Origin: an uncultured Bacilli bacterium
Lineage (GTDB): Bacteria > Bacillota_I > Bacilli_A > RF39 > UBA660
Reading direction: 5' to 3'
Assembly (NCBI GenBank): GCA_947594925.1
Contig: CANQEJ010000004.1
Location: 1-50,083 of the forward strand
Length of the DNA: 50,083 bases
Shown here: positions 1,778 to 19,734 of the stretch, one piece after another
Layout of the letters: each line of letters begins with the position of its first letter
Position numbering within the stretch: the stretch's first letter is position 1
Program-made: the position numbers and the translations under genes
The notes under the pieces: generated by a model
Database searches by the model: none
Told to the model about the DNA's origin: nothing
Seen by the model: only the letters and a program-made list of their open reading frames with translations

Positions 1778-3964
1778 ATGTACGCTAATATTTTAGTAGA
1801 ATATAATGTTAAAACTCTAGATAAGACTTTTACGTATAAAGTAGCACCTAAAATTAAAGATAAATTAAAAGTAGGTATGAAAGTAAAGGTCCCTTTTGGT
1901 CATACTTATATTAATGGTTTTGTAATTGGTCTAGAAAATAAAACAGAAGAAGATTTAAATAATTTAAAAGAAGTTACGGAGATAGTAGATGAAAATTTAG
2001 TTTTAAATCAAGAATTATTAGAATTAGGTAAATATTTAAAAGAAAAAACATTATGTTCTTTAATTAGTGCTTATCAAACTATGCTTCCACCTTCTTTAAA
2101 AATAAAAAATCAGAAAAATAATTATGAGTTAACGGCAACATATATCATTTTAAATGAGGAAGTAGATATTGAAAAATATATTAGGGAAAATAAAAGAAGT
2201 GTTAAACAAATAGAAATATTAAGAAATTTACAAAAACATTTAAAAATTTTAAAAAAAGATATTAATTCTAGTAGTTTAAAAACTTTAATAAATAAAAATG
2301 TAGTTAAAGAAGTTAAAGAAAAAAAATATCGTATTAATATTAATCTTCAATTAAAACAAGATAATCCTCTTACTAAAGAACAAGAAGAAGTATTTAAGGC
2401 AATTAAAGATAATTTAGAAAAAGAGAAAACTTTTTTATTGTATGGTGTAACGGGAAGTGGTAAAACAGAAGTATATATTCATTTAATAAAAGAAGTTATC
2501 AAAAAGCAAAAACAAGCCTTACTTTTAGTGCCCGAGATAACTTTAAGTACGCAACTTGTTAAAAGATTTTATGAGAGATTTGGTAGTAAAGTAGCTATAT
2601 TTCATAGTGCTTTATCCGAAGGGGAAAAGTATGACGAGTATCAAAAAATAGCGAAAGGGGAAGTTGATGTTGTAGTTGGAACCCGTAGTGCTATTTTTAC
2701 GCCTATTAAAAATTTGGGTATAATTATTATTGATGAAGAACACTCCGAAAATTATAAACAAGAAAAAATGCCTCGTTATACAACAATTGATATGGCTTTA
2801 TTTCGTTCTAAGTATAATCAAATCCCCTTAGTTTTAGGAAGTGCTACACCTAGTTTAGAAACAATGGCTCGCGCAAAAAAAGGGGTGTATACCTTACTTA
2901 CTTTAAATAATCGAGTTAATAATGCTACTTTACCGAAAATAACTATTGTAGATATGAAACAAGAAATGAAAAAAAGAAATCCCTTATTTAGTGATTTATT
3001 ACTTGCTAAAATTAATAATTGTTTAGAGAAAAAAGAACAAGTGATTATTTTGTTAAATCGGCGAGGGCACTCCACTATTATTACTTGTCAAAATTGTGGC
3101 CATACTTTTAAATGCCCGCATTGTGATATTTCTTTAACTTATCATAAATCTGCTAATAATTTAAGATGCCATTATTGCGGCTACACGATTTTTAAACCTG
3201 AAGAATGTAGTGAGTGTCATGAAAAAGCTTTAAATTATCTAGGAACGGGAACCGAAAAGTTAGAATTAGAGTTACAAAATAATTTTCCAAAAGCTAATAT
3301 TGTGCGGATGGATGTTGATACAACGATAAGAAAGGGTTCGCATGAGAAAATTATTAGTTCTTTTCAAAACGGGGAATATGATATTTTACTTGGAACGCAA
3401 ATGATTTCTAAAGGCCTAGATTTTGCTAATGTTACTTTAGTAGGAGTTATTAATGCAGATTTATCTTTAAATATGCCTGATTTTAAAGCCCGAGAAAGAA
3501 CTTTTAGTCTTCTTACCCAAACGGCTGGACGTTCCGGAAGAAGTAATAAAAAAGGAGAAGTTGTTATCCAAACTTTTGACCCTAATAATGAAATATATAA
3601 ATTTATTTTAGAAAATGATTATAATTCTTTTTATAACTATGAAATGGCTTTTAGACATGAATTAGACTATCCGCCTTATTATTATTTAGCTAGTATTAAA
3701 ATAACGAGTAAAGATTATAATCTAGCAAGTAAAGAAGCTAATAAAGTTGGTAATTATCTTCTTAAAAATCTCGAAAAAACAACTATAGTTTTAGGCCCAA
3801 CCACGGCTAGTTTATTTCGTCTTAATGGAATTTTTCGCTTTCAAATAATTATTAAATATAAAGTAGATAATAAACTAAATGATGTTTTAAGAAAATTAGA
3901 TGATATGTATATTATTAACAAGCAAGTTAATCTAGAAATTGATACTTCTCCAATGACAATCTGA
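1778..3964 (+). CDS. priA: Primosomal protein N' (replication restart helicase)
   Basis: GVTGSGKTEVY Walker A, DEEH, SATPS, Cys-rich Zn region (CQNC/CPHC/CHYC/CSEC), QTAGRSGR. Confidence 0.96.
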   Translation: MYANILVEYNVKTLDKTFTYKVAPKIKDKLKVGMKVKVPFGHTYINGFVIGLENKTEEDLNNLKEVTEIVDENLVLNQELLELGKYLKEKTLCSLISAYQTMLPPSLKIKNQKNNYELTATYIILNEEVDIEKYIRENKRSVKQIEILRNLQKHLKILKKDINSSSLKTLINKNVVKEVKEKKYRININLQLKQDNPLTKEQEEVFKAIKDNLEKEKTFLLYGVTGSGKTEVYIHLIKEVIKKQKQALLLVPEITLSTQLVKRFYERFGSKVAIFHSALSEGEKYDEYQKIAKGEVDVVVGTRSAIFTPIKNLGIIIIDEEHSENYKQEKMPRYTTIDMALFRSKYNQIPLVLGSATPSLETMARAKKGVYTLLTLNNRVNNATLPKITIVDMKQEMKKRNPLFSDLLLAKINNCLEKKEQVIILLNRRGHSTIITCQNCGHTFKCPHCDISLTYHKSANNLRCHYCGYTIFKPEECSECHEKALNYLGTGTEKLELELQNNFPKANIVRMDVDTTIRKGSHEKIISSFQNGEYDILLGTQMISKGLDFANVTLVGVINADLSLNMPDFKARERTFSLLTQTAGRSGRSNKKGEVVIQTFDPNNEIYKFILENDYNSFYNYEMAFRHELDYPPYYYLASIKITSKDYNLASKEANKVGNYLLKNLEKTTIVLGPTTASLFRLNGIFRFQIIIKYKVDNKLNDVLRKLDDMYIINKQVNLEIDTSPMTI

Positions 3965-3968
3965 TAAA

Positions 3969-3997
3969 TTGACAAATTAGTGTAAATATGATATGAT
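3969..3997 (+). promoter_or_regulatory. SigA-type promoter with extended -10
   Basis: TTGACA(3969-74)-17 bp-TATGAT(3992-97), with TG at 3989-90. Confidence 0.75.
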
Positions 3998-4031
3998 TAA
4001 AGTATCAATGGGGATAGGTTGGTTTAATGAT

Positions 4032-4056
4032 AATCCTACATTGTTAGGATTTTTTT
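4032..4056 (+). terminator. Terminator-like hairpin inside the 5' leader (possible attenuator, or priA terminator)
   Basis: AATCCTA-cattgt-TAGGATT followed by T-run. Confidence 0.55.
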
Positions 4057-4073
4057 ATGAAGGAGAAAGAGAT

Positions 4074-4949
4074 ATGAAAAAAAGTTTATTATTAATAACA
4101 ATGCTTTTAGTTTTGACATTAGGAGTAAATAATGTTAAAGCTTCTTCTGATAAAAAGAAAGTACAAACTAATTTTCAATATAAATTAGTGTGTGGTTACT
4201 ATAATGGTAGTGATGAACTTACTTGGGGTTCACAAGAATATAATAATGATTTTAAAAATTATGATGGAACTGAAAGTAACAGTAATAGAGCTTGTGGAAC
4301 AACAAGTGTTACTAAGAATTATCCATTAGGAGACCCAGAAGCTAATAATTTACCACGTGATGTTGAAATGATTTATGATAATTGTATGGGTAGTACAGGA
4401 AAACAAGCTGGTAAAGTTGGTCAAAGTTGTTCAAATGAAGGAGCTGTTCGTACCTGTACAGTAAAATGGACTGGCTATTGTTATAAAGACCCAAATGCTT
4501 CTAAAAAAACAAATAGTAAGAAAAAAAGAGAATCTAAGAATTTCTCATTAACTAATACTTCTATTTATACAGGAGAAACAACGGAGATTTCTCAAAATGG
4601 TGCTTGCTATGAATATAAAGTAGTAGATGATGACATTTTAGCTTATGATGAAAACGACGATAGTTTTAAAGGCTTAAAAGCAGGACGTACATATATTAAA
4701 TGTTATGACCAAGATGGTAAATATTTATCACGTAAAGCAGTAAAAGTAAAACAAAAAACGGAATATCGTTATGTTACAGAAAAAACAGCTATGTATAAAG
4801 ATTCTAAAGGGCAATCTGAAGAAAAGGTCATAAAAAAGGGAAGTAAAGTAAAATATTTAACTGTTAAAGTAAATGGTTATTGTAAGATTAAAAAGGGTTT
4901 TGAAACTGGTTATGTAGAGTGTGAAGATTTAACAGTTGAGAAAGTTTAA
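4074..4949 (+). CDS. Secreted Cys-rich protein with Ig-like and C-terminal SH3b-like domains (paralog of 38745..39656)
   Basis: Start reassigned to ATG 4074 (SD AAGGAG; signal peptide MKKSLLLITMLLVLTLGVNNVKA); C-terminal KVKYL..NGYCKIK..TGYVEC resembles SH3b. Confidence 0.7.
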   Translation: MKKSLLLITMLLVLTLGVNNVKASSDKKKVQTNFQYKLVCGYYNGSDELTWGSQEYNNDFKNYDGTESNSNRACGTTSVTKNYPLGDPEANNLPRDVEMIYDNCMGSTGKQAGKVGQSCSNEGAVRTCTVKWTGYCYKDPNASKKTNSKKKRESKNFSLTNTSIYTGETTEISQNGACYEYKVVDDDILAYDENDDSFKGLKAGRTYIKCYDQDGKYLSRKAVKVKQKTEYRYVTEKTAMYKDSKGQSEEKVIKKGSKVKYLTVKVNGYCKIKKGFETGYVECEDLTVEKV

Positions 4950-9185: not shown

Positions 9186-9437
9186 TTAAACACCTTCTTC
9201 ATTACTATTGTAAATAAGAGCATTTAATTTTATAACATCAAATAAATCTTTGGCGCTCATATTACTAATATCCAATTTTAATTGATAACTTTCAAAAATA
9301 GTTTCTAAATTAAAATTGCCTAAGTTTATTTTATTATTATCTAATTCTAAAATATTATTATTAATAGATATTTTTTTAAATTCGGAGTTATTTTGTTGGA
9401 TAACTTTTAAAACGACTTCATTAATACGACCAATCAT
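9186..9437 (-). CDS. Hypothetical protein
   Basis: 83-aa ORF, SD AGGAG, upstream minus-strand promoter. Confidence 0.65.
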   Translation of the reverse strand: MIGRINEVVLKVIQQNNSEFKKISINNNILELDNNKINLGNFNLETIFESYQLKLDISNMSAKDLFDVIKLNALIYNSNEEGV

Positions 9438-9463
9438 AATATCAAACTCCTATTCTAATAATT

Positions 9464-9492
9464 ATTTTACTAAATTATCATCTTTTTGTCTA
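9464..9492 (-). promoter_or_regulatory. SigA-type promoter for the two minus-strand ORFs
   Basis: TAGACA-17 bp-TAAAAT on the minus strand. Confidence 0.55.
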
Positions 9493-9524
9493 TTGGGTTT
9501 TCTTTTTTTCTTTTTCGTGCAAAA

Positions 9525-9567
9525 ATGTCAACCAAAAACTTTCTGCTTTACAACAAACCGGGGGGGG
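9525..9567 (+). repeat. 43-bp dispersed repeat, copy 1 (poly-G promoter element)
   Basis: ATGTCAACCAAAAACTTTCTGCTTTACAACAAACCGGGGGGGG is identical to 50041-50083. Confidence 0.95.
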
Positions 9568-9574
9568 GTATAAT
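9547..9574 (+). promoter_or_regulatory. Promoter with G9 homopolymer in the -35/-10 spacer (candidate phase-variable)
   Basis: TTTACA(9547-52), 16-bp spacer ending in G9 (9560-68), TATAAT(9569-74). Confidence 0.75.
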
Positions 9575-9609
9575 AGACTTAGATGTAAAGATAGGAAGGA
9601 ATAAATGTA

Positions 9610-11319
9610 ATGAAGGAAAGAAAACGTAAAATAACAACAATAACTATAATAGGAATAATGTTGATACTTGCAATAACAACATTTACTTATGCTATATGGA
9701 GTAGGACACATATTCAAACAGGAATAAATAAAAATACATATGCTTGTTTTGATATTAGTTATGAAGAAACAAATGGACAGGGAATAACTATGGAAAATGG
9801 TTTTCCTCAAAAAGATGAACAAGGTATGCAAAATGACCCATATGAAGTACAAATAGAAAATACATGTGATACAGTAACTTCATATAATGTAATACTAAAT
9901 AAAGAGCATAGTTCTGATTTAGCTGATGAACATTTAAAAATAGCTGTAGATAACGATTATAAATTATTATCTGCAGCAACTCAAACTGCTAAGAGAACAA
10001 TCCAAGATTTCACTAATGAAGCATCATACATAATAGGGACAGGAGTAGTAGGACCAAAACAAACAAAGACTGTCCAAATAAGAAGTTGGATGGATGAAAA
10101 GACATCTGAACAAGATGGAGAAAATAAAAGTTTTACTTTTAAGATTACTATTGAAAATGTTGTAGGAATAAACGGTGAAATACCTTTAAAAGATATGATA
10201 TTAGCTGCTCAGCCTATTAATGATGAAATAACAGATTTTTCTTTTGTTTTAAGTGATTGGAAAGAGAAAGAAGTTAATATTGATGCATCTAAAGGAATAT
10301 GTGTTGTGCAAGATTATAATGACATAGAGTGGAATGAAATAGATTATTTTACTTTTTATAATAAAGGTGTTTGTAATGTTAAAGATGTAGAAAATTATGT
10401 AAATTGGTATACATTTGGTAATGATATGCAAAATAGTAGTTCGGGAATTTATAGAATAAAGGAAGTAAATGAGACTACTATTACTAAAGTAGATTATCAA
10501 ACATATGTGCCAAAAGAAAAAGATGGACTGGTTAAAGCCCAAGATGACGATGGAACAAGTTATATTTATCGAGGAGTAATAAACAATAACTATATATCTT
10601 TTGCCAATAAATTATGGAGAATTGTTCGTATCAATGGTGATGGTAGTATCAGAATTATTGCTGATGAACAAATAGGAAAAAGTAAATTTAATAATGAATA
10701 TCAGGGGCAGAAATATGTTGGTTACACCTATGATAATAGTGAACATTGCACAAATGATAATCCATGTAAAAGTGAATATAATGGTTCAGCCACTTTTAAA
10801 AAATCTAATGACTGGGTTGATAGTGTTGTTAAAACATACTTAGAAAATTGGTATTATGAAAATTTAAAAGAAAATGATGATGAAATTGTTTTAACCACTT
10901 TCTGCAATGATACTACAATTGGTAATACGTATAGTTGGGGTATAACATATGGGGCGGGAGAAAGAATTGAGAAAAATAATACAGCAATGTTAAAATGTCC
11001 CGATACTGATAAAGACTATGGAGGAGTATATAAATTAAAAATTGGTTTGATTACAGCCGATGAACTATTATATGCAGCTATTCCTTATCGTCCTATTGAC
11101 GCAATTAAAGGTAATTATCTGCTTCATAATTATCAATGGTGGACAATGACCCCAGCGGCAATATCAAATAATGAAACTTATATTTATTATGGTTACGGTA
11201 CTTCAAGTGAAGATGATTATGCTACAGATTTATTTGAAATATATCCAGTTATCAACCTAAAATCAGACGTAACCGTAACGGGTGCCGGAACACAAGATAA
11301 TCCATATGTTGTACAATAA
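9610..11319 (+). CDS. Surface/secreted protein: SipW/TasA-like N-terminal signal (TFTYAIW) and C-terminal CLec-like domain
   Basis: Basic N-terminus, hydrophobic helix and TYAxW; C-terminal YIYRG..NNYISF...WRIVRIN.DG, IGLITADE, WWTMTP, YPVINL, GAGTQDNPY. Confidence 0.65.
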   Translation: MKERKRKITTITIIGIMLILAITTFTYAIWSRTHIQTGINKNTYACFDISYEETNGQGITMENGFPQKDEQGMQNDPYEVQIENTCDTVTSYNVILNKEHSSDLADEHLKIAVDNDYKLLSAATQTAKRTIQDFTNEASYIIGTGVVGPKQTKTVQIRSWMDEKTSEQDGENKSFTFKITIENVVGINGEIPLKDMILAAQPINDEITDFSFVLSDWKEKEVNIDASKGICVVQDYNDIEWNEIDYFTFYNKGVCNVKDVENYVNWYTFGNDMQNSSSGIYRIKEVNETTITKVDYQTYVPKEKDGLVKAQDDDGTSYIYRGVINNNYISFANKLWRIVRINGDGSIRIIADEQIGKSKFNNEYQGQKYVGYTYDNSEHCTNDNPCKSEYNGSATFKKSNDWVDSVVKTYLENWYYENLKENDDEIVLTTFCNDTTIGNTYSWGITYGAGERIEKNNTAMLKCPDTDKDYGGVYKLKIGLITADELLYAAIPYRPIDAIKGNYLLHNYQWWTMTPAAISNNETYIYYGYGTSSEDDYATDLFEIYPVINLKSDVTVTGAGTQDNPYVVQ

Positions 11320-11324
11320 TAAGT

Positions 11325-11346
11325 TATAAACGCGGAAGCGTTTATA
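11325..11346. other. Perfect 9-bp stem with GGAA loop just after the stop codon
   Basis: TATAAACGC-GGAA-GCGTTTATA. Confidence 0.7.
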
Positions 11347-11595: not shown

Positions 11596-12558
11596 GTGAA
11601 AAAAATGATAATATCTGTTCTTTTAATTAGTATAGTTTTTTTAAGCTTTACACCATCAGTATCTGCTGATACCACTTGTTTCTATAATAGTAGTGAAAGA
11701 AGTGGGGGATATTATGAATACGGTGAACTTACTATTAAAGACCCTTCTAATTCAAATGCTAAAGCTTCTTTTCAAAATTTGATGGGGCCAAAACTTGATT
11801 GCAGTGGTTGGGCAGATGCGGGAGTTTACGGAGCATGTGTTTTAACTTTCTTTATTGGTTGTGGCATTGCAGCAAATTTGTGGGCTGATAATATGTGTAG
11901 TTTTAGGGCTAATGATTTAAAAACGAACGATTTAAAAGATTATTCTTCAGCCGCTAGTAAAAATCTTAATACTAAATTATCATATATTGATGCTCAAGGA
12001 AAAAAACAAAGTGTAAATCTTCCTAATACTAATTTAGGCTCTGAGTGTCCTGAATATTTAGGTGTTGTTATTAGCGACTCTAGTGATGCATCTAATGTTC
12101 AAGTTTTTGCAGGAGATAGCAGTACAAAGAATTTTATTGATAATTATATAAATAGTAATCCTGATTATAATTATGTTATTTGGGGTTCAGAATTTGAAAG
12201 AACTGGCCATGATAGTTCAGATGGCAGTGGTGGGGGGTCTTCTCAAGATGACAGTAATTTAAATACATGTGTAGGTGTTTTAGGGAATAAAGTTAATGGA
12301 GAATATGAAAGTGGAAGTGTAGGGGCTTTATTACAACAGATTTTTGATTATATGAAAATGGCTGCTGTAATTTTAGTTTTTGTTTTTTCAGTAATCGATT
12401 ATGCTAAAGCAATTGCTGCCCAAAATGCTGATGCTTTTAAAAAAGCTAATGTTAATTTATTAAAAAGAATTATATTTGGTATTGTATTCTTCTTGATACC
12501 AACTTTAGTAAATCTTATTTTAAGTGTTATAGATTCTTCTACTTGTGGTATACAATAG
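11596..12558 (+). CDS. Secreted Cys-rich protein with C-terminal VirB2/TrbC-like pilin domain
   Basis: Signal peptide; C-terminal two-helix hydrophobic hairpin (IFDYMKMAAVILVFVFSVIDYAKAI...KKA...KRIIFGIVFFLIPTLVNLIL); first gene of the T4SS-like operon. Confidence 0.6.
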   Translation: MKKMIISVLLISIVFLSFTPSVSADTTCFYNSSERSGGYYEYGELTIKDPSNSNAKASFQNLMGPKLDCSGWADAGVYGACVLTFFIGCGIAANLWADNMCSFRANDLKTNDLKDYSSAASKNLNTKLSYIDAQGKKQSVNLPNTNLGSECPEYLGVVISDSSDASNVQVFAGDSSTKNFIDNYINSNPDYNYVIWGSEFERTGHDSSDGSGGGSSQDDSNLNTCVGVLGNKVNGEYESGSVGALLQQIFDYMKMAAVILVFVFSVIDYAKAIAAQNADAFKKANVNLLKRIIFGIVFFLIPTLVNLILSVIDSSTCGIQ

Positions 12559-12573
12559 TTTGTAGGTGAGATA

Positions 12574-15147
12574 ATGAATTTAATTGATGTCGGTCAAGTT
12601 TGGGATGTTATTAATGGTTTATTTGTAACTATTGATTCCGTAATTTATAAATTTGTTGGCTGGTTATATGAATTATATATATTAATTAGTAGTGCCAGAA
12701 TATTCCAAACAGAAACTTTTGAATTATTTATAAATCGTATATATGTTATTTTAGGGGTTATTATGCTATTTTTCTTGGCATATACGATTTTAAAAAATAT
12801 TGCCGACCCAGATTCATTTGCTAAAGGTGAAAGCTCAATGGGAAAAATTATTTCCAACACCGTTATTTCTTTAGTTCTTATTGCTATCTTACCAACAATT
12901 TTTACTTTTTTATATCATGCTCAAGAAATTTTATTAAAAGAAAATATAATTGGAAGATTAATTTTAGGAAATTATTCGACTGCTTCAGAGACTTTACAAT
13001 TAACTTTTGAAGAAGATGTTTGTAATAATTTGAATACTTTAAAAGGCGATGGAAAATATACAGTTACTAATGGGACTTGTACAATTAGCTGGGAAGGTAA
13101 AAATACATCTAGTACAGTTGATTTAGCCGGAAATGCTATTGCTGTTGATATATTTACGGCCTTTTACTATCCGTATTTAACTGAGGGTGAAAATAGTGAG
13201 TATGAAGCAATGGAAGATGCTGCTAGAGCTCAAGCTGAAGCTTTAGGTGAGGACCCAGAATCATTTGTTAATAGTAATCAATTTTATAATGCGGATTTTC
13301 ATTATGACGAGTGGGAAGATGACCATCATAGTATGAACGCTAAAGAAGATTTTTTATATTCCAAAATAGCTAGTTATGACGCTTGTCATAATATGGCGGA
13401 TGGATATGTTTATGGTCCAACTGCTTCAGCTTGCGCTGCGGAAATGCTTGTTAATAATAAATTAAATAATCTTAGTAATGATATGCTACCTTTAAACTTT
13501 AAATCTGTAATGCAGTATGCTAAAACTACAGGGGATTTTAGTGGATTTAAATTACTTTCTAATTTTGTTTATGAAGACCGTATTCAATATTCTCTTATTA
13601 TATCTACGGCAGCTGGTTTGTTTGTTTGCTATATTTTTATTTCATATTGTATTGATATGGGTCTTAGAGCAGCAAAATTAGGTTTTGCCCAATTAGTTGC
13701 ACCGGTGCCAATACTTGCTCGTATTGTGCCATCTCAAAAGAAGATGTTTGATAGCTGGACTAAATTTACTTTGAGGTCTTATTTTGAAGTATTTGTCCGA
13801 ATTGCTATTATATTTTTAGGAATATTTATGATAACCCATTTGCCTAATGTTCAGGATATGTGGGCAGATTCAATCTTTGCTAATATTACCTTTATGTCTA
13901 TTAAAGGACCACTTATAATGGATATTAGTTCTGCTTCTTGGGGAACTAAATCTATTGCTCGTGTTGCTGTTATTATTGGTATTTTAATGTTTGTTAAACA
14001 AGCACCGAAATTAATTTCCGATGCTCTAGGCATTAGTATTAATACCGGTTCATTAAATATTCGCAACAAGTTAAAAGATATGGTAGGTGGCGAACACGTA
14101 GTCAGAGGTTTAAATGCGGTTGGAGCTCTTCCTGGCCGAGGTATTGGAGCTATTAAAGGTGGCCTTGGTAGTATGTGGGCAGCCAATGTTCATGGTAACG
14201 GTAAAGTACCTTTGAAAACAGCCTTTGCGCATGGTATGAAACAAGGCTGGAAAAATCCGAAGAAGAGCTTTAATAAGAACTTTAGAGAAACTTATGGTGA
14301 TATCACCGGAGATGTTAAGTCTAAACCTTCATTAATTAACGAAGGACCAACACTTGCAAGTCGAGTAACTAATAAAATTGATAAAGATTACAAAAAGGCG
14401 GTTGGAAAAGGATATACTGCTGAACTTGAAAAAGATGTTGCTAATTTTGAAGCAACTGACCCAAGATTTACAAGAGCTATTGAAGCTAAACGTAGTGAAT
14501 ATCGCGAAAAAATTAGAGAAGTTCAAAACAGTGAACAATTTAAAAATATTAAACAATCTGAACGTACTCGTCTAGAAAGAGAATTCCAAGACAATGAAGG
14601 TTCGCGTATTGCTAAACGTATGAAAGATTATGAGGATAGTCAGGAATATCGTTATGCTAGAACAATGGCTTATCGTAGAGCTGAAACGGAAGTTCGGGAG
14701 GAAGCAGCTAGAAATGGTGAAACTTTAAATGCTATGGAAATTCAAGAAAGAGCAAGACGCAAGGAAACCGATTATTTAATTGATAGTTTGAAACAAATGA
14801 ATTCCGAAAATGCTCGTCAATATATGAAAGATAAAGACCGTCGTGATAATATTGCTCAAGAACTTGACCGTAAAGCTAATGAAAATGCTATTAACTCTAT
14901 GAGACAATCTAATGTTGAATATAGAAAAGCTTTAGAAAATGTTAATAATACTACTGCTATTAGAGCAGAAGTTACAGAAAATGTTAGAAGAGAAATTACA
15001 GCTAATCCAACATCAGCAGCCGATTCTCGTTATGTTCGTAACTTAGATGAACTTGAAAATAAAGGTAAGATTACTCGTAAGAAAGAATTTGAAGATAACT
15101 GGACAGATTTATGGAACAAAACTTACAATGAAAAGAATAAGAAGTAG
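12574..15147 (+). CDS. Extended VirB6/TrbL-like polytopic membrane protein
   Basis: Multiple TM helices, RAAKLGFAQLVAPVPI and KQAPKLISDALG-type motifs, Gly-rich segment, long charged C-terminal helical tail; operon context. Confidence 0.7.
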   Translation: MNLIDVGQVWDVINGLFVTIDSVIYKFVGWLYELYILISSARIFQTETFELFINRIYVILGVIMLFFLAYTILKNIADPDSFAKGESSMGKIISNTVISLVLIAILPTIFTFLYHAQEILLKENIIGRLILGNYSTASETLQLTFEEDVCNNLNTLKGDGKYTVTNGTCTISWEGKNTSSTVDLAGNAIAVDIFTAFYYPYLTEGENSEYEAMEDAARAQAEALGEDPESFVNSNQFYNADFHYDEWEDDHHSMNAKEDFLYSKIASYDACHNMADGYVYGPTASACAAEMLVNNKLNNLSNDMLPLNFKSVMQYAKTTGDFSGFKLLSNFVYEDRIQYSLIISTAAGLFVCYIFISYCIDMGLRAAKLGFAQLVAPVPILARIVPSQKKMFDSWTKFTLRSYFEVFVRIAIIFLGIFMITHLPNVQDMWADSIFANITFMSIKGPLIMDISSASWGTKSIARVAVIIGILMFVKQAPKLISDALGISINTGSLNIRNKLKDMVGGEHVVRGLNAVGALPGRGIGAIKGGLGSMWAANVHGNGKVPLKTAFAHGMKQGWKNPKKSFNKNFRETYGDITGDVKSKPSLINEGPTLASRVTNKIDKDYKKAVGKGYTAELEKDVANFEATDPRFTRAIEAKRSEYREKIREVQNSEQFKNIKQSERTRLEREFQDNEGSRIAKRMKDYEDSQEYRYARTMAYRRAETEVREEAARNGETLNAMEIQERARRKETDYLIDSLKQMNSENARQYMKDKDRRDNIAQELDRKANENAINSMRQSNVEYRKALENVNNTTAIRAEVTENVRREITANPTSAADSRYVRNLDELENKGKITRKKEFEDNWTDLWNKTYNEKNKK

Positions 15148-15158
15148 GAGGTTAGTAT

Positions 15159-15470
15159 ATGAATAATTATTTGATACCGGCAAACTCGAAAAAGTCGCAA
15201 CTTATTTTAGGGTTCTTTAATAAGATTGATTTATTTGGAATATTTCTACCTGGTATAGGTTTGACGGTCTTTTTGCTTTTTGCTTTTAAATCTAATAATG
15301 TGATTATTACAGTTTTGGATTTACTACCGGCGCTAATTGCTGCTTTCCTTGTTATGCCGGTGCCAAATTATCATAATATGTTTACGCTTTTAAGTAATGT
15401 TCATACTTATTTTAGCCGTAGAAGAAAGTATTATTGGAGAGGATGGTGTGCAAATGGCAAAGACCACTAG
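15159..15470 (+). CDS. PrgI/VirB3-like small membrane protein
   Basis: 103 aa, YLIPAN N-terminus, two TM helices, basic RRRKYYW; upstream of VirB4. Confidence 0.7.
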   Translation: MNNYLIPANSKKSQLILGFFNKIDLFGIFLPGIGLTVFLLFAFKSNNVIITVLDLLPALIAAFLVMPVPNYHNMFTLLSNVHTYFSRRRKYYWRGWCANGKDH

Positions 15471-16011
15471 TATTTCAAAGTATTCAGAAGATTGGGTACC
15501 TGTAAAAAGTATTATGAACGGTATGATAGAACTAGAAAATGGAAGCTATGTTGCCGGAGTTAAAATTGAATCTAAAGATATCTTTATTATGGATGCCCAA
15601 GCTCAGAATAATGTTATATTCGGGATGAGAAATTTCTATAATGCTATTGATTATGAATTTTGGTTAGTAATTGCGGATAGACCAGTAGATATTAATATTT
15701 ATCTTTCGCAGTTACAAGTATTATATTCGCATGCAGTTAATCCAGAAGTTCGGAAATTAATTGACCAAGATATTAATAAAGCTAACCTTTTTATGAGTAA
15801 TGAAATGAACGTAGTGGATACTGAATATTACATTTTATTTAAAGAGAAAAAACAAGAAATTATTCAAAAGAGAATTCATAATTTAATAACTAATTTAGCT
15901 AATGCTGGAGTTAATTCCGCACAGGCATCAAATTCCGATTTGAGAATGCTTTTAGATAATTTCTTAAATGGGGGAGCCACGACAAGTTTTGGGACGGTGA
16001 TGAGTTCATGA
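15454..16011 (+). CDS. VirB4-associated accessory subunit (TrsD-like)
   Basis: Start reassigned to ATG 15454; WVPVKSI.NG.I.L.NG.YV..VKI N-terminus; overlaps neighbours on both sides. Confidence 0.55.
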   Translation: MAKTTSISKYSEDWVPVKSIMNGMIELENGSYVAGVKIESKDIFIMDAQAQNNVIFGMRNFYNAIDYEFWLVIADRPVDINIYLSQLQVLYSHAVNPEVRKLIDQDINKANLFMSNEMNVVDTEYYILFKEKKQEIIQKRIHNLITNLANAGVNSAQASNSDLRMLLDNFLNGGATTSFGTVMSS

Positions 16012-17792
16012 GTTTAAAAAGTGAAATAGCTCCAAAAGGTTTAATTTTTAAACCAACTGAGTTTATAATAAGTGATAAATATGCCACTATATTAACTATA
16101 GTTAGTTATCCTAAATATATTGCGCATGGTTATTTAGCTAATTTAACAAGCATTTCGGGAGTTAAGGTTGTAATTAAACATATTCCTATAGAGTTTTCAA
16201 CTATTTCAAAAATGTTAAATAAAGAAATAGCCGATTTAAAAATGCGTTATCAACATGAAAACGACCGTACAATTCAGGAAAGAATTCGTCAAGATTATGA
16301 ATCTATTGAACAATTTGTTTCTATGTTAGCTTCGACACAGTCTCGAATTTTTGATTTTCAAATGCACATTATGATAACTGCTAATAATAAAGAAGAATTA
16401 GAACTTAAAAAAATTCAAGTTCGTTCCTTTTTGGATGCCTTGGGTATGCGTGGTATTCCCTTAATGTTTGAACAAGAAAAGGTATTAAAATCAATGATAC
16501 CTATTTTCCCTAAACAAGATATTGAAGACCGTGTGGGAACACCAATTCCAGCGCCAACTATAGCAGCAATGTATCCTTTTGTTTTTGATAGTATTAAAGA
16601 CCCTGGTTATTCTACACTTTTAGGTGTTGATTTCTCTGGAGGAGTTGTCTTATTTAATCAATTCTTATATCAAATCAAAAAAGAACATAATCGAAATAAT
16701 GCCAATGTTATTATTTTAGGTACATCTGGTTCTGGTAAATCAACAGCAGCAAAACTTCTATTACGTAATCATATTCGTAATAGTTATAAGATTGTAGCCA
16801 TTGACCCAGAAGGTGAATTGGAAGAAATGACCCGTAACTTAGGAGGAGACTTTATTGACCTAGGTAAGGGTGGCGAATTTGGGATGATTAACCCTTTAGA
16901 GATTGTTATGGATGCGGATGAAGAAGAAATAGCTCAAGGTTTAGGTTATACAATTTTAACTAGAACTTTACAATCTTTAAAAGCTTTTATGAAATATTAT
17001 AGTCCATCTATTGAAGATGATGTTTTAACTATGTTTAGTGAAGTTGTTCAAGATACTTATAAACGTTATAAGATTGATTTTGATTCTGATTTTACCCATT
17101 TAACTTCCGAAGATTATCCAACTTTTGATGATGTTTATGCAACGATTAAAGGACGTATTTTATCAATGCCTGAAAAAACCCAAGAACGGGATATTATGGA
17201 ACGTTTAGAGTTACGGGTTCGTCCTTTAGTTAAAGAGTTGAGATATTATTTTACGGGACATACAACTATTCAAATTAATAGTAATCATATTGTCTTTAAT
17301 ATTCGTGAACTTATGAATAGTGATGAAAATATTCGTAATGCCTTATTTTTCAATATTTTGAAATATGCTTGGGGTTTATGTTTGGATAAATCATTGAATA
17401 CAGTTATGATGGTTGATGAAGCGCACGTGCTATTATCAGGACGTAATGAGTTAGGAGCAGAATTCTTAGCGCAAATTCAACGTCGTAGTCGTAAGTATAA
17501 TACGGGAACTATTATCATTACACAACAACCAACTGACTTTGCTGCTCCAAATATTATAGTCCATGGTAAGGCAATATTTGATAATGCTTCTTATTATTTA
17601 ATTATGGGATTACGTAAACAAGCAGTTGATGATTTGGCTCAATTAGTTGATTTAAATGATAATGAAAAAGAAAGAATTAAATACTTTAATCAGGGAGAAG
17701 CCTTATTTGTTTGTGGAAGCAGACGTATGCAAATTAACGTAATTCTGACCCAAGAAGAACTTGATTCCTTTGGTAGTGGAGGCGGATTATAG
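16008..17792 (+). CDS. virB4: VirB4-family T4SS ATPase
   Basis: N.NVIILGTSGSGKS Walker A, IDPEGE, INPLE, VDEAH Walker B, RRSRKYN..IIITQ, GEALF. Confidence 0.9.
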   Translation: MSLKSEIAPKGLIFKPTEFIISDKYATILTIVSYPKYIAHGYLANLTSISGVKVVIKHIPIEFSTISKMLNKEIADLKMRYQHENDRTIQERIRQDYESIEQFVSMLASTQSRIFDFQMHIMITANNKEELELKKIQVRSFLDALGMRGIPLMFEQEKVLKSMIPIFPKQDIEDRVGTPIPAPTIAAMYPFVFDSIKDPGYSTLLGVDFSGGVVLFNQFLYQIKKEHNRNNANVIILGTSGSGKSTAAKLLLRNHIRNSYKIVAIDPEGELEEMTRNLGGDFIDLGKGGEFGMINPLEIVMDADEEEIAQGLGYTILTRTLQSLKAFMKYYSPSIEDDVLTMFSEVVQDTYKRYKIDFDSDFTHLTSEDYPTFDDVYATIKGRILSMPEKTQERDIMERLELRVRPLVKELRYYFTGHTTIQINSNHIVFNIRELMNSDENIRNALFFNILKYAWGLCLDKSLNTVMMVDEAHVLLSGRNELGAEFLAQIQRRSRKYNTGTIIITQQPTDFAAPNIIVHGKAIFDNASYYLIMGLRKQAVDDLAQLVDLNDNEKERIKYFNQGEALFVCGSRRMQINVILTQEELDSFGSGGGL

Positions 17793-17810
17793 GATAAAAG
17801 GCGGTGAGGT

Positions 17811-19730
17811 ATGGACAATAACGATGAAAGAGAACAAAAACGTCTTGAGCAACAACGTAATGAACAAAATAATATAAAAAATGCTAGAGCTGCGGTGGAT
17901 ATCGCAGCTAATTCTGGTGTTCCAGGTGTAAGTACAGTTGGCCATGCTGCTAAAATCGCTGATACTCTCACTGGTGGCAAAGCTACAGAAGTTATGGGCA
18001 AGAATTTGACTAAATCAGTTACTGGTAATTTTCCAACTAGTAAGAAAGTGCAAGGTCAAATTCAAGATGTATCTAATGCCTTAGCAGAAAGTGGAGCTAC
18101 TGATGCCATTGCTGGGGCAATGGGAGCCAAAAAAGCTTTAGGTGGTAATAAAACAAGTGTTGCTAGTCCTAAAAGAGCCAATAGTATGGTGCCTAATAAT
18201 ATGCAAGGGATGCCTAAACCAGAAGAGCCTTCTTTAAGTGAGGCACAAAAAAAAGAAAGTGATTTAGATAGTGATATTGATAAAGTTTCGGAAGAATTAG
18301 CCAATGAAGAAGCAACAAATGAAGAAAATAAACCACAAGTGGAAAATTCGAAATTACATGGAGAAGCTAGTAAAAGTTTAGCTAAGTTTTTAATGAAAAA
18401 TCCCCAAATTTTAGGGGTAGCTTTGATGGCTATTGGGGGATTTATGATGATTGTTTTTGTTTTAGTTATTTTATCTTGCTTTATGGGCTCTGGTGATAGC
18501 GCTAGTGCTAGTTCTTCAGGGTCTTCCCATTTTGGTTCAACTGCCTCGGCTTCTGTTACTGATTCTTGCCAGCAGATATCAGAACCATTAGATACCTTTT
18601 TGAAAAGTAAAGGTACTTCTTTAGAAGATTATAATAATTATATTATTAGTGAAGTTTATAAAGCCGGGCTAGGGACAAGAAATGGCGTTGTGGCTGCTGC
18701 TGTTTCTTTAGTCGGAGGTTTATGTCAAAATTACCAAGCTCGTTTACCTTATACAATGGGTGGTGCACATCCTCCAGATTTTTATGGTGCTAAAGAGATA
18801 TGGGGTAGTGTTATAAATAATGGCGCTGGGGAAATGCGTTTTGGTTATGGACCTTACTATTATGAAGGACCAGATTGTAGTGGTTTTGTAAACTGGGCAA
18901 TTCATAATGGCGGATATAAAGTATCCGATATGACGGCTGATAGTTTTGGTAGTTATGGAGCTACGCATTCGATGAGTAGTTTTACTGGTCAAGCCGGAGA
19001 TGTTTTATTTAATAATCACCATGTTGTTTTAATTATTGGTGTTGAAGGTGATAATTATTTAATTGCGGAGGCTTCTTCAGGTGAAAATGGCACTCGTATT
19101 ACCAGAGAACCAATTAAAAGTGGTAATTATCAAATTGTAGATATGACATCTTTTTATAGTGATGCTTCTAATAAAGTAAGTGACTATCCGGAAAATAAAA
19201 CTTCTAATTTTCAAACAACACCTGATGGCTCAGCAAGTGGTAAACCTATTATCTTTGTTGGAGATAGTCGAACAGTTATGATGTGTGAAACATATAATTT
19301 ATGTGAAAGTAATAAACATGTTGCTAAGGTAAGTATGGGTTATAACTGGTTAGTAAGTGATGCTATAAATGAAGTAAATTCTCTTCTTAGTGGTAGTAGT
19401 GAAAGTTATAATATTATTGTTACTTTAGGAGCTAACGATTATGATTATCAGGCCTCTAATTATGTTAGTAAAGTAAATGAATTAGCCAATGGTTCATGGT
19501 CTAGTCATAATGTCTATTTTGCTAGTGTGGGACCTTTTGAAGGTAGTAGTGAAAATAGTGGAGTAGAAAAGTTTAACAGTGATATAAAATCTGGCTTAAA
19601 TAGTAAAGTAAAATATTGTGATATTTATTCGAAAATGGTAAATGGTGGTTATAAAACAACCGATGGAACGCATTATGATCAAGAAACTTCTCAAAAAATG
19701 TATAATTATTTAAAAGAGTGTCTAGGGTGA
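17811..19730 (+). CDS. Membrane-anchored NlpC/P60 peptidoglycan hydrolase fused to an SGNH/GDSL hydrolase domain
   Basis: TM helix near aa 200-225; PDCSGFVNW...HHVVLIIG...AEAS (NlpC/P60); FVGDSR, LGAND, DGTHY (SGNH blocks I, III, V). Confidence 0.8.
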   Translation: MDNNDEREQKRLEQQRNEQNNIKNARAAVDIAANSGVPGVSTVGHAAKIADTLTGGKATEVMGKNLTKSVTGNFPTSKKVQGQIQDVSNALAESGATDAIAGAMGAKKALGGNKTSVASPKRANSMVPNNMQGMPKPEEPSLSEAQKKESDLDSDIDKVSEELANEEATNEENKPQVENSKLHGEASKSLAKFLMKNPQILGVALMAIGGFMMIVFVLVILSCFMGSGDSASASSSGSSHFGSTASASVTDSCQQISEPLDTFLKSKGTSLEDYNNYIISEVYKAGLGTRNGVVAAAVSLVGGLCQNYQARLPYTMGGAHPPDFYGAKEIWGSVINNGAGEMRFGYGPYYYEGPDCSGFVNWAIHNGGYKVSDMTADSFGSYGATHSMSSFTGQAGDVLFNNHHVVLIIGVEGDNYLIAEASSGENGTRITREPIKSGNYQIVDMTSFYSDASNKVSDYPENKTSNFQTTPDGSASGKPIIFVGDSRTVMMCETYNLCESNKHVAKVSMGYNWLVSDAINEVNSLLSGSSESYNIIVTLGANDYDYQASNYVSKVNELANGSWSSHNVYFASVGPFEGSSENSGVEKFNSDIKSGLNSKVKYCDIYSKMVNGGYKTTDGTHYDQETSQKMYNYLKECLG

Positions 19731-19734
19731 TGAT

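Follow-up and report, generated by a model that had tools for sequence, protein, structure and literature searches.

Within the window, by which we mean the whole stretch of 50,083 nucleotides that was analysed, an open reading frame for a protein of 569 amino acids lies behind a compact promoter whose two hexamers are separated by a spacer that ends in nine consecutive G residues (Table 1). The first-pass annotation had described this arrangement as TTTACA, a 16-nt spacer ending in G9, TATAAT and 35 nt to the start codon, and each element of that description is borne out from the sequence; its further remark that a run of nine G would be very unexpected in such AT-rich DNA also holds, both in the window, which contains three G8 words against 0.18 expected, and for the runs of the genome as a whole that are set out below. 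A consensus scan ranks the promoter at 9547-9574 first among the 31 promoter-like sites found between 8400 and 12700 (11 of 12 hexamer matches, spacer of 16 nt), and shuffled sequences yield about as many such sites (29.4 ± 5.7 versus 31), so that this promoter is distinguished by its quality and its context rather than by the count of the scan. A homopolymer of at least about seven residues does stand between a recognisable -35 and a recognisable -10 at 9547-9574, and the combined pattern TTTACA-N7-9-G7-TATAAT, which none of 100 shuffles contains, is present a single time in the window. If, as we infer, the promoter fires, transcription would be expected to start near position 9581.

Table 1. 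Coordinates of the poly-G promoter, the gene behind it, the downstream genes and the second cassette copy in the window
Feature	Position	Strand	Remarks
Upstream arm of the cassette (GTCAACC...AAACC)	9527-9559	+	contains the -35; seen in 42 copies
-35 hexamer TTTACA	9547-9552	+	5/6 match to TTGACA; sequence and consensus scan
Spacer ACAAACC + G9	9553-9568	+	16 nt
G9 homopolymer	9560-9568	+	proposed slippage tract; its length is the main difference among cassette copies (G7-G9)
-10 hexamer TATAAT	9569-9574	+	perfect; adjoins the G9 tract
Conserved leader	9575-9609	+	column identity 97-100% over +1 to +60 after the tract
GGAAGG, Shine-Dalgarno-like	9594-9599	+	in the leader
ATG of the 569-aa ORF	9610	+	35 nt past the -10
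569-aa ORF	9610-11319	+	N-terminal helix; predicted beta-sandwich ~45-186; predicted C-terminal enlarged C-type-lectin-like domain ~190-569
Palindromic hairpin, terminator-like	11325-11346		just 3' of the stop codon; T-run on the - strand only
Two proteins without Pfam match, 320 aa and 857 aa	in 11596-22790	+	in the conjugation-like gene set
VirB4/TraG-P-loop-like ATPase	16008-17792	+	
NlpC/P60 hydrolase	17811-19730	+	
VirD4/TraG coupling protein	20475-22790	+	
Second cassette copy	50043-50083	+	TTTACA at 50063-50068; contig ends after G8 (one of the 13 ends within a tract)

An ATG-TAA start-stop (ATGTAATG) spans the 9605-9612 region, 5 nt 3' of the GGAAGG, where it overlaps the real ATG, and is kept in nearly all copies of the cassette to which this promoter belongs. 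Rfam returned a chance match only for 9300-9800 (URE2_IRES, E 0.54), so that the cassette corresponds to no known RNA element. Directly downstream of the gene and on the same strand, a gene set resembling those for Gram-positive-type type IV secretion or conjugation extends from 11596 to 22790, with the hairpin and a gap of 276 nt between it and the poly-G gene.

The encoded protein and its family

The 569-aa protein begins with a basic stretch followed by a hydrophobic helix, as seen in the sequence and in an AlphaFold2 model, and because of this N-terminus the label of a secreted or surface protein, possibly one engaged in binding, appears reasonable. The first-pass annotation had spoken outright of a surface-protein gene; surface location is a prediction, with which the basic and hydrophobic N-terminus agrees. 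The hydrophobic segment does not end in a cysteine, that is, no lipobox can be read from the sequence. None of the families in Pfam and NCBIfam scores above threshold for the 569-aa protein. DUF6273 (PF19789) comes to 16.0 bits (E 0.011), below its gathering threshold of 23.5 bits, and matches one relative, P0026, at 27.9 bits, above that threshold, thereby suggesting that DUF6273 is a distant neighbour at best.

The AlphaFold2 model, built with 50 sequences (pLDDT 83.7, pTM 0.73), aligns over residues 190-569 with residues 32-303 of 9qa6_A at Z 13.9 and an rmsd of 3.2 (193 aligned residues), the next match being at Z 7.3, and Foldseek likewise retrieves 9qa6_A with the C-terminal part of the model (E 8.6e-5). 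The fold match is thus clear of background, and 9qa6_A is the N-terminal domain of the IgA peptidase of Thomasclavelia ramosa, which has been characterised as an enlarged C-type lectin-like domain that is not needed for catalysis (PMC12237041); a fold that the model has in common with this domain does not in itself show a function. The best scores of the N-terminal sandwich (residues 45-186), with WxLIP at Z 6.5 and the TasA fibre at Z 6.2, are middling, that of the TasA fibre lying in the range of chance arrangements, and may reflect nothing beyond a common arrangement. The NCBIfam SipW models do not match the 569-aa protein and match one distant relative below cut-off. The genome holds two genes for SipW-type signal peptidases, and a secretion route of the SipW/TasA type is what we take to be a lead for the family. 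One of the two SipW-type matches (C10:10634-11014) has an in-frame TGA and may be a broken gene or a case of local recoding; the genes of the family require no reassignment of TGA.

A search with the 569-aa protein among open reading frames of at least 100 aa reveals 45 paralogous frames in the genome, most of which, where their start is visible, are preceded by the cassette; a few of the 45 have no G run. The family unites a large number of paralogues that share a conserved 5' end, diverge in the mature part and have homopolymer promoters of their own, an organisation that resembles that of the vlp genes of Mycoplasma hyorhinis. It was found in each of the nine further genomes of the genus included in the search (16-46 matches per genome), and matches across the family-level group are weaker than those within the genus. 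In a protein database at least 2,498 relatives at E ≤ 1e-5 were found among the 7,999 candidates scored, with almost no annotation, one of them being named a hypothetical protein of a 'Bacilli bacterium'. One paralogue that has an ordinary promoter carries a run of ten G within its coding sequence instead (C13:23670-23679), which splits it into frames of 171 and 464 aa in different reading frames; this could be either a copy that is phase-variable at the level of translation or a pseudogene.

A promoter cassette repeated through the genome

The genome that holds the window (contig C4) comprises 1,040,717 bases in 58 contigs with 27.8% GC, and the lengths of G/C homopolymers in it are distributed bimodally, with 11 runs of 6, 4 of 7, 25 of 8, 19 of 9 and 1 of 10; the 45 runs of 8 to 10 residues compare with about 0.25 runs of at least 8 expected from base composition. 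Forty-two of the 49 runs of at least 7 residues sit in one and the same cassette of promoter, 5' untranslated region and signal anchor, which reads GTCAACCAnnAACTTTCTGCTTTACAAYAAACC, then G7-9, then TATAATGGACTTAGATGTAAAGATAGGAAGGAATAAATGTAATGAAGG, and which extends over about 130 nt to take in the promoter, the leader and roughly the first 17 codons. Three of these 42 copies are duplicates from contig overlaps, so that the cassette occupies some 38-39 loci. Among the 28 complete copies the tract is G7 in three, G8 in eleven and G9 in fourteen.

Conservation along the cassette was computed as column identity on the 12 copies whose flanks extend at least 200 nt upstream and at least 250 nt downstream (G7 in three of them, G8 in four and G9 in five). 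Identity is about 45-50% beyond some 45 nt upstream of the tract, reaches about 90% at positions -33 to -1 and 97-100% at +1 to +60 after it, and falls to about 60-70% within the coding sequence, a profile that points to promoter, leader and first codons having been kept constant while the genes behind them diverged. Within this otherwise conserved cassette the tract is the most variable site, its position being fixed and its length differing among homologous promoters. In 29 of the 32 poly-G promoters scored in the genome, the best-matching -35 is TTTACA.

The conservation of the entire cassette, leader included, might also mean that the tract and its flanks make up a binding site or a structural element, be it an operator inverted repeat or a G-tract that alters the melting of the promoter, through which the copies would be regulated together. 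There is indeed an inverted repeat of 12 nt at 9546-9557 and 9579-9590 (83% complementary, with the core CTTTACA / TGTAAAG) that brackets the tract and the -10, and at the tpr promoters of Treponema pallidum a CRP homologue has been described as acting together with poly-G (PMC7864442). A binding site, however, would not tolerate changes in length of 1-6 nt, and the inverted repeat was not noticed, by eye, in the cassettes of other species. We hold this explanation to be quite improbable, and co-regulation would in any case be compatible with switching, to which it would add without replacing it.

Spacer lengths and variation of the tract

Each spacer in the cassette consists of 7 nt plus the G run, whereby G7 gives 14 nt, G8 gives 15, G9 gives 16 and G10 would give 17. 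When, for each -10, the best-matching -35 at a distance of 13-22 nt is taken, the 32 scored poly-G promoters of the genome have spacers of 13 nt (one), 14 (two), 15 (twelve), 16 (fourteen) and 19 nt (three), and not one of the 32 has a spacer of 17 nt. The proposal in the first-pass annotation that G10 would yield a 17-nt spacer and turn the gene ON is therefore right in its arithmetic, while the ON state itself is a product of that arithmetic and not of evidence. The fetched loci of 13 other genomes contain 58 runs, of which 53 have a -35 with at least 4/6 matches, and the spacers of these 53 are distributed around greater lengths: 14 nt in one, 15 in two, 16 in two, 17 in three, 18 in seventeen, 19 in twenty-five, 20 in two and 21 in one.

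The tract lengths seen in an assembly are the majority state of the cells, and two readings of the spacer lengths offer themselves. Under one of them most copies are 1-2 nt off the optimum, too short here and too long in the relatives, and only a few members of the family would be ON in any one cell; under the other, these promoters work best at a length other than 17 nt, and the simple 17-nt rule may fail. We tentatively favour the former, since the shift goes in opposite directions in this genome and in its relatives.

Indirect signs that the tract varies in length come from the assembly itself. Thirteen of its 116 contig ends stop within a run (12 after G8 and one after G9), eight contig heads begin exactly 69 nt upstream of a tract, and three pairs of end and head overlap by exactly 77 nt (69 + G8), the next base being G in two of them and T in one. 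These overlap lengths suggest a de Bruijn graph with k=77, and the terminal 77-mers at the tract ends occur nowhere else in the assembly; where a node that ends in G8 and includes at least 36 nt of locus-specific sequence branches, the reads of one locus must continue with both G and T. The 13 breaks accordingly fit a heterogeneity in length that depends on the locus, and errors of sequencing or PCR in homopolymers, co-existing strains and assembler heuristics could be other sources of them. Five further contig ends pass the tract and stop 38-65 nt beyond it, at a distance at which repetition by itself would end a contig; some 20 copies are assembled through without a break, the tract at 9560-9568 with its G9 among them. 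Taken over the whole bin, the cassette and its immediate surroundings contain at least 27 of the 116 contig ends (13 within the run, 5 shortly after it and 9 heads at 69 or 93 nt upstream), and the cassette repeat is a main cause of the bin's fragmentation.

That so many runs lie at contig ends, 12 of which stop at exactly G8, could raise the suspicion that the poly-G is an artefact of sequencing or assembly, for instance of G calls in two-colour chemistry. This suspicion is scarcely credible and we rejected it: 28 complete copies are embedded in contigs and flanked by conserved sequence on either side, the 77-nt overlaps of the graph account for the contig ends, and the poly-G form is found again in contigs of four further sequencing runs and in the genomes of other species and genera. 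The four runs belong to the six public DNA runs that contain the stretch, which was found in no RNA run; examined as k=31 contigs, all four have flank contigs that stop at 9547, where the repeat begins, and each has one contig with a form one G shorter (G8), which may stem from any of the paralogues. Summed depth rises at the repeat from 54.5 to about 3,500-4,300 in X1 and from 38.3 to about 3,400-4,600 in X2, a ratio that is not to be read as a copy number. A scan of JGI metagenomes with 39 nt of the cassette yielded no matches.

Taken together with the anatomy of the promoter, the copy number of the cassette and the architecture in relatives, these observations make it likely, in our judgement, that the locus is part of a multi-locus transcriptional phase-variation system comparable to vlp of M. 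hyorhinis or porA of Neisseria meningitidis. The G9 would be the variable part of the spacer in a sigma-70-type promoter, which in turn would belong to a cassette of about 130 nt placed before some 40 paralogous genes for putative secreted or membrane-anchored proteins. A G would be gained or lost through slipped-strand mispairing as the DNA replicates, presumably at a useful rate, and each such change would alter the distance between -35 and -10 and with it the strength of the promoter, independently for each copy, such that expression would follow tract length and a population would carry many combinations of expressed family members. The slipped-strand homopolymer switch of the first-pass annotation hence finds support as a class of mechanism in the comparison among the 28 copies, the relatives and the 13 assembly breaks, and what does not stand is the picture of a single odd locus, in the place of which there is a genome-wide family.

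The same cassette could, of course, have been duplicated with its G run as a fixed part that does not switch, in which case the differences in length would be neutral noise or fixed settings of promoter strength. The locus at 9560-9568 and about 20 others do assemble unbroken, no assembled copy of the genome has a 17-nt spacer, and the closest pair of paralogues (99.3% identity over 600 nt of coding sequence) has G9 in both members, the other pairs being at most 90% identical and hence carrying little information on the rate of change. Matches above cut-off to the MutS_V and DNA_mis_repair domains indicate, moreover, that MutS and MutL are present, by which slippage should be damped. Yet runs of 8-10 G have been kept in a genome of 28% GC at more than 100 times the expected number, tracts recur at the same promoter position with other flanks and other genes in other genera, the tract is the most variable site within a cassette that is otherwise 97-100% conserved, and the breaks at 13 contig ends fall precisely inside the tract, on 77-mers unique to their locus; in view of these points we regard a cassette without switching as unlikely. 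Absence of mismatch repair as a cause of slippage is ruled out by the MutS_V and DNA_mis_repair matches.

Related genomes and known switches

Within the genus, the pattern of G7 followed by TAWAMT is found 32, 22, 20, 15, 11, 9, 2, 1, 1 and 0 times in ten genomes, and the reversed control pattern is absent from all ten. Of 151 genomes sampled from the family-level group, 22 contain at least one match and 7 at least four, with one genome of another genus reaching 31. The layout in the fetched loci of relatives consists of TTGACA (or TTGCAA or TTGCCA), 8-10 nt, G7-G13, TATAAT and a leader, with flanks that differ from those described here, and the genes behind these tracts encode proteins whose N-terminus is basic and hydrophobic; some of these proteins are only distantly related or unrelated to the family of the 569-aa protein. 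Conversely, ordinary promoters that lack a G run precede the family genes of three species of the genus (G007, G008 and G009), and in three or four species of the genus the protein family occurs although poly-G promoters are rare or absent. The tract is thus best seen as an add-on to the family that some lineages use heavily.

A scan of a genome collection, carried out without a control, located a -35, G8 or longer and TATAAT in at least 119 stretches, which shows no more than that the layout is not unique to this family; the 80 matches listed include many gut Firmicutes and, by name, Clostridia, Christensenellaceae, Treponema, Helicobacter, Streptobacillus and Saccharibacteria, from gut MAGs as well as isolates.

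Homopolymer switches in promoters are textbook matter for a few pathogens, and vlp, the case most similar in organisation, consists of a handful of genes with a conserved 5' region and a divergent mature part. In M. hyorhinis every member of the vlp family has a poly-A in its promoter, and insertions and deletions in it switch transcription (PMC10502178). Both systems are multigene families in a small AT-rich genome with a homopolymer promoter of its own for each member. They differ in that the homopolymer is poly-A there and poly-G here, where there are about 40 copies, and in that the proteins described here are not repeat-rich lipoproteins but have 500-590 aa, predicted beta-sandwich and lectin-like domains and no lipobox cysteine; lacking a lipobox and any Pfam or NCBIfam match above threshold, the family is organised like vlp without being a member of the vlp protein family. 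The genome also contains PBP genes, from which it follows that the organism is walled.

At porA of N. meningitidis a poly-G lies in the spacer, and the length of the tract sets that of the spacer and thereby the level of transcription, with an optimum of 17 nt (PMC7864442). The position of the poly-G and a surface-exposed product, which in the present case is a prediction, are common to both systems, but porA is a single locus of a Gram-negative pathogen, whereas here we find a repeated cassette in an uncultured Firmicute-like lineage of the gut, the assembled spacers of which are 13-16 nt and never 17. In T. pallidum the poly-G of tp0126 likewise lies between -35 and -10, again with an optimum of 17 nt, and runs of G7-G11 occur in the promoters of tp0126, tprE/G/J and tprL, which encode putative surface proteins, their lengths varying within isolates (PMC7864442). 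The promoters of T. pallidum are, in contrast, not copies of one cassette, the gene families are different ones, and switching was measured there, whereas here it is inferred.

A further parallel is offered by the poly-G contingency loci of Campylobacter jejuni, another small AT-rich genome, which has a few dozen variable G/C runs of at least 8 residues, mostly within coding sequences, and which to our knowledge is without MutS and MutL. The genome studied here resembles it in having a few dozen G/C runs of at least 8 in a small AT-rich genome, and differs from it in that nearly all tracts lie in promoters (one lies within a coding sequence) and in that MutS and MutL are present. Among open-access full texts, we found no paper on a system of this kind in Bacilli-like lineages of the gut that are uncultured.

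The mechanism is accordingly a known one, and it is the lineage, the scale and the protein family that are new. What deserves attention is a density of about one putative switch per 25-30 kb, the uncultured commensal that hosts it and an unannotated lectin-like family; in other words, a promoter homopolymer device at very high density in an uncultured commensal with a reduced genome, attached to a large family without any Pfam match above threshold. A fuller picture, which we put forward tentatively and as possible rather than probable, would comprise some 40 poly-G promoters that switch independently of one another, one per 25-30 kb, in front of lectin-like surface proteins, with most copies parked 1-2 nt off the optimum (too short here, too long in relatives) and a small and changing subset expressed in each cell. 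Such an arrangement might be the densest contingency system of promoters and a commensal counterpart to the antigenic variation of pathogens, directed perhaps against host IgA or phages.

If switching does take place, about 6% of a 1-Mb genome would be spent on variable surface display (an estimate from 40 genes of about 1.6 kb each). Metagenome bins of this group would then be expected to fragment at the cassettes, the tract lengths would hold information on populations that is lost in assemblies, and the family with its beta-sandwich and enlarged C-type-lectin-like domain would become a candidate for interaction with the host or with phages.

G runs in this genome are also found in settings other than the main cassette. 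Family genes on C11 and C17 have a second type of poly-G promoter, TTGCAA-N10-G9-TATAAT, and an element with a run of six G, AAACCCA-G6-TTAATATG, lies about 100 nt upstream of three cassettes (C23, C26 and C41) and also at a loose end in run X4. Runs of G8-G9 precede genes outside the family at C7:26320, C22:6773-6780 and C49:2995-3003: one such run takes the form TTGCAA-N10-G9-TATACT before a 255-aa protein without Pfam match, another that of TTTACA-N7-G8-TACTAT before a 102-aa helical protein, and one G9 stands where a ribosome-binding site would be expected, 10 nt upstream of the ATG of a DUF2229/HGD-D-like gene.
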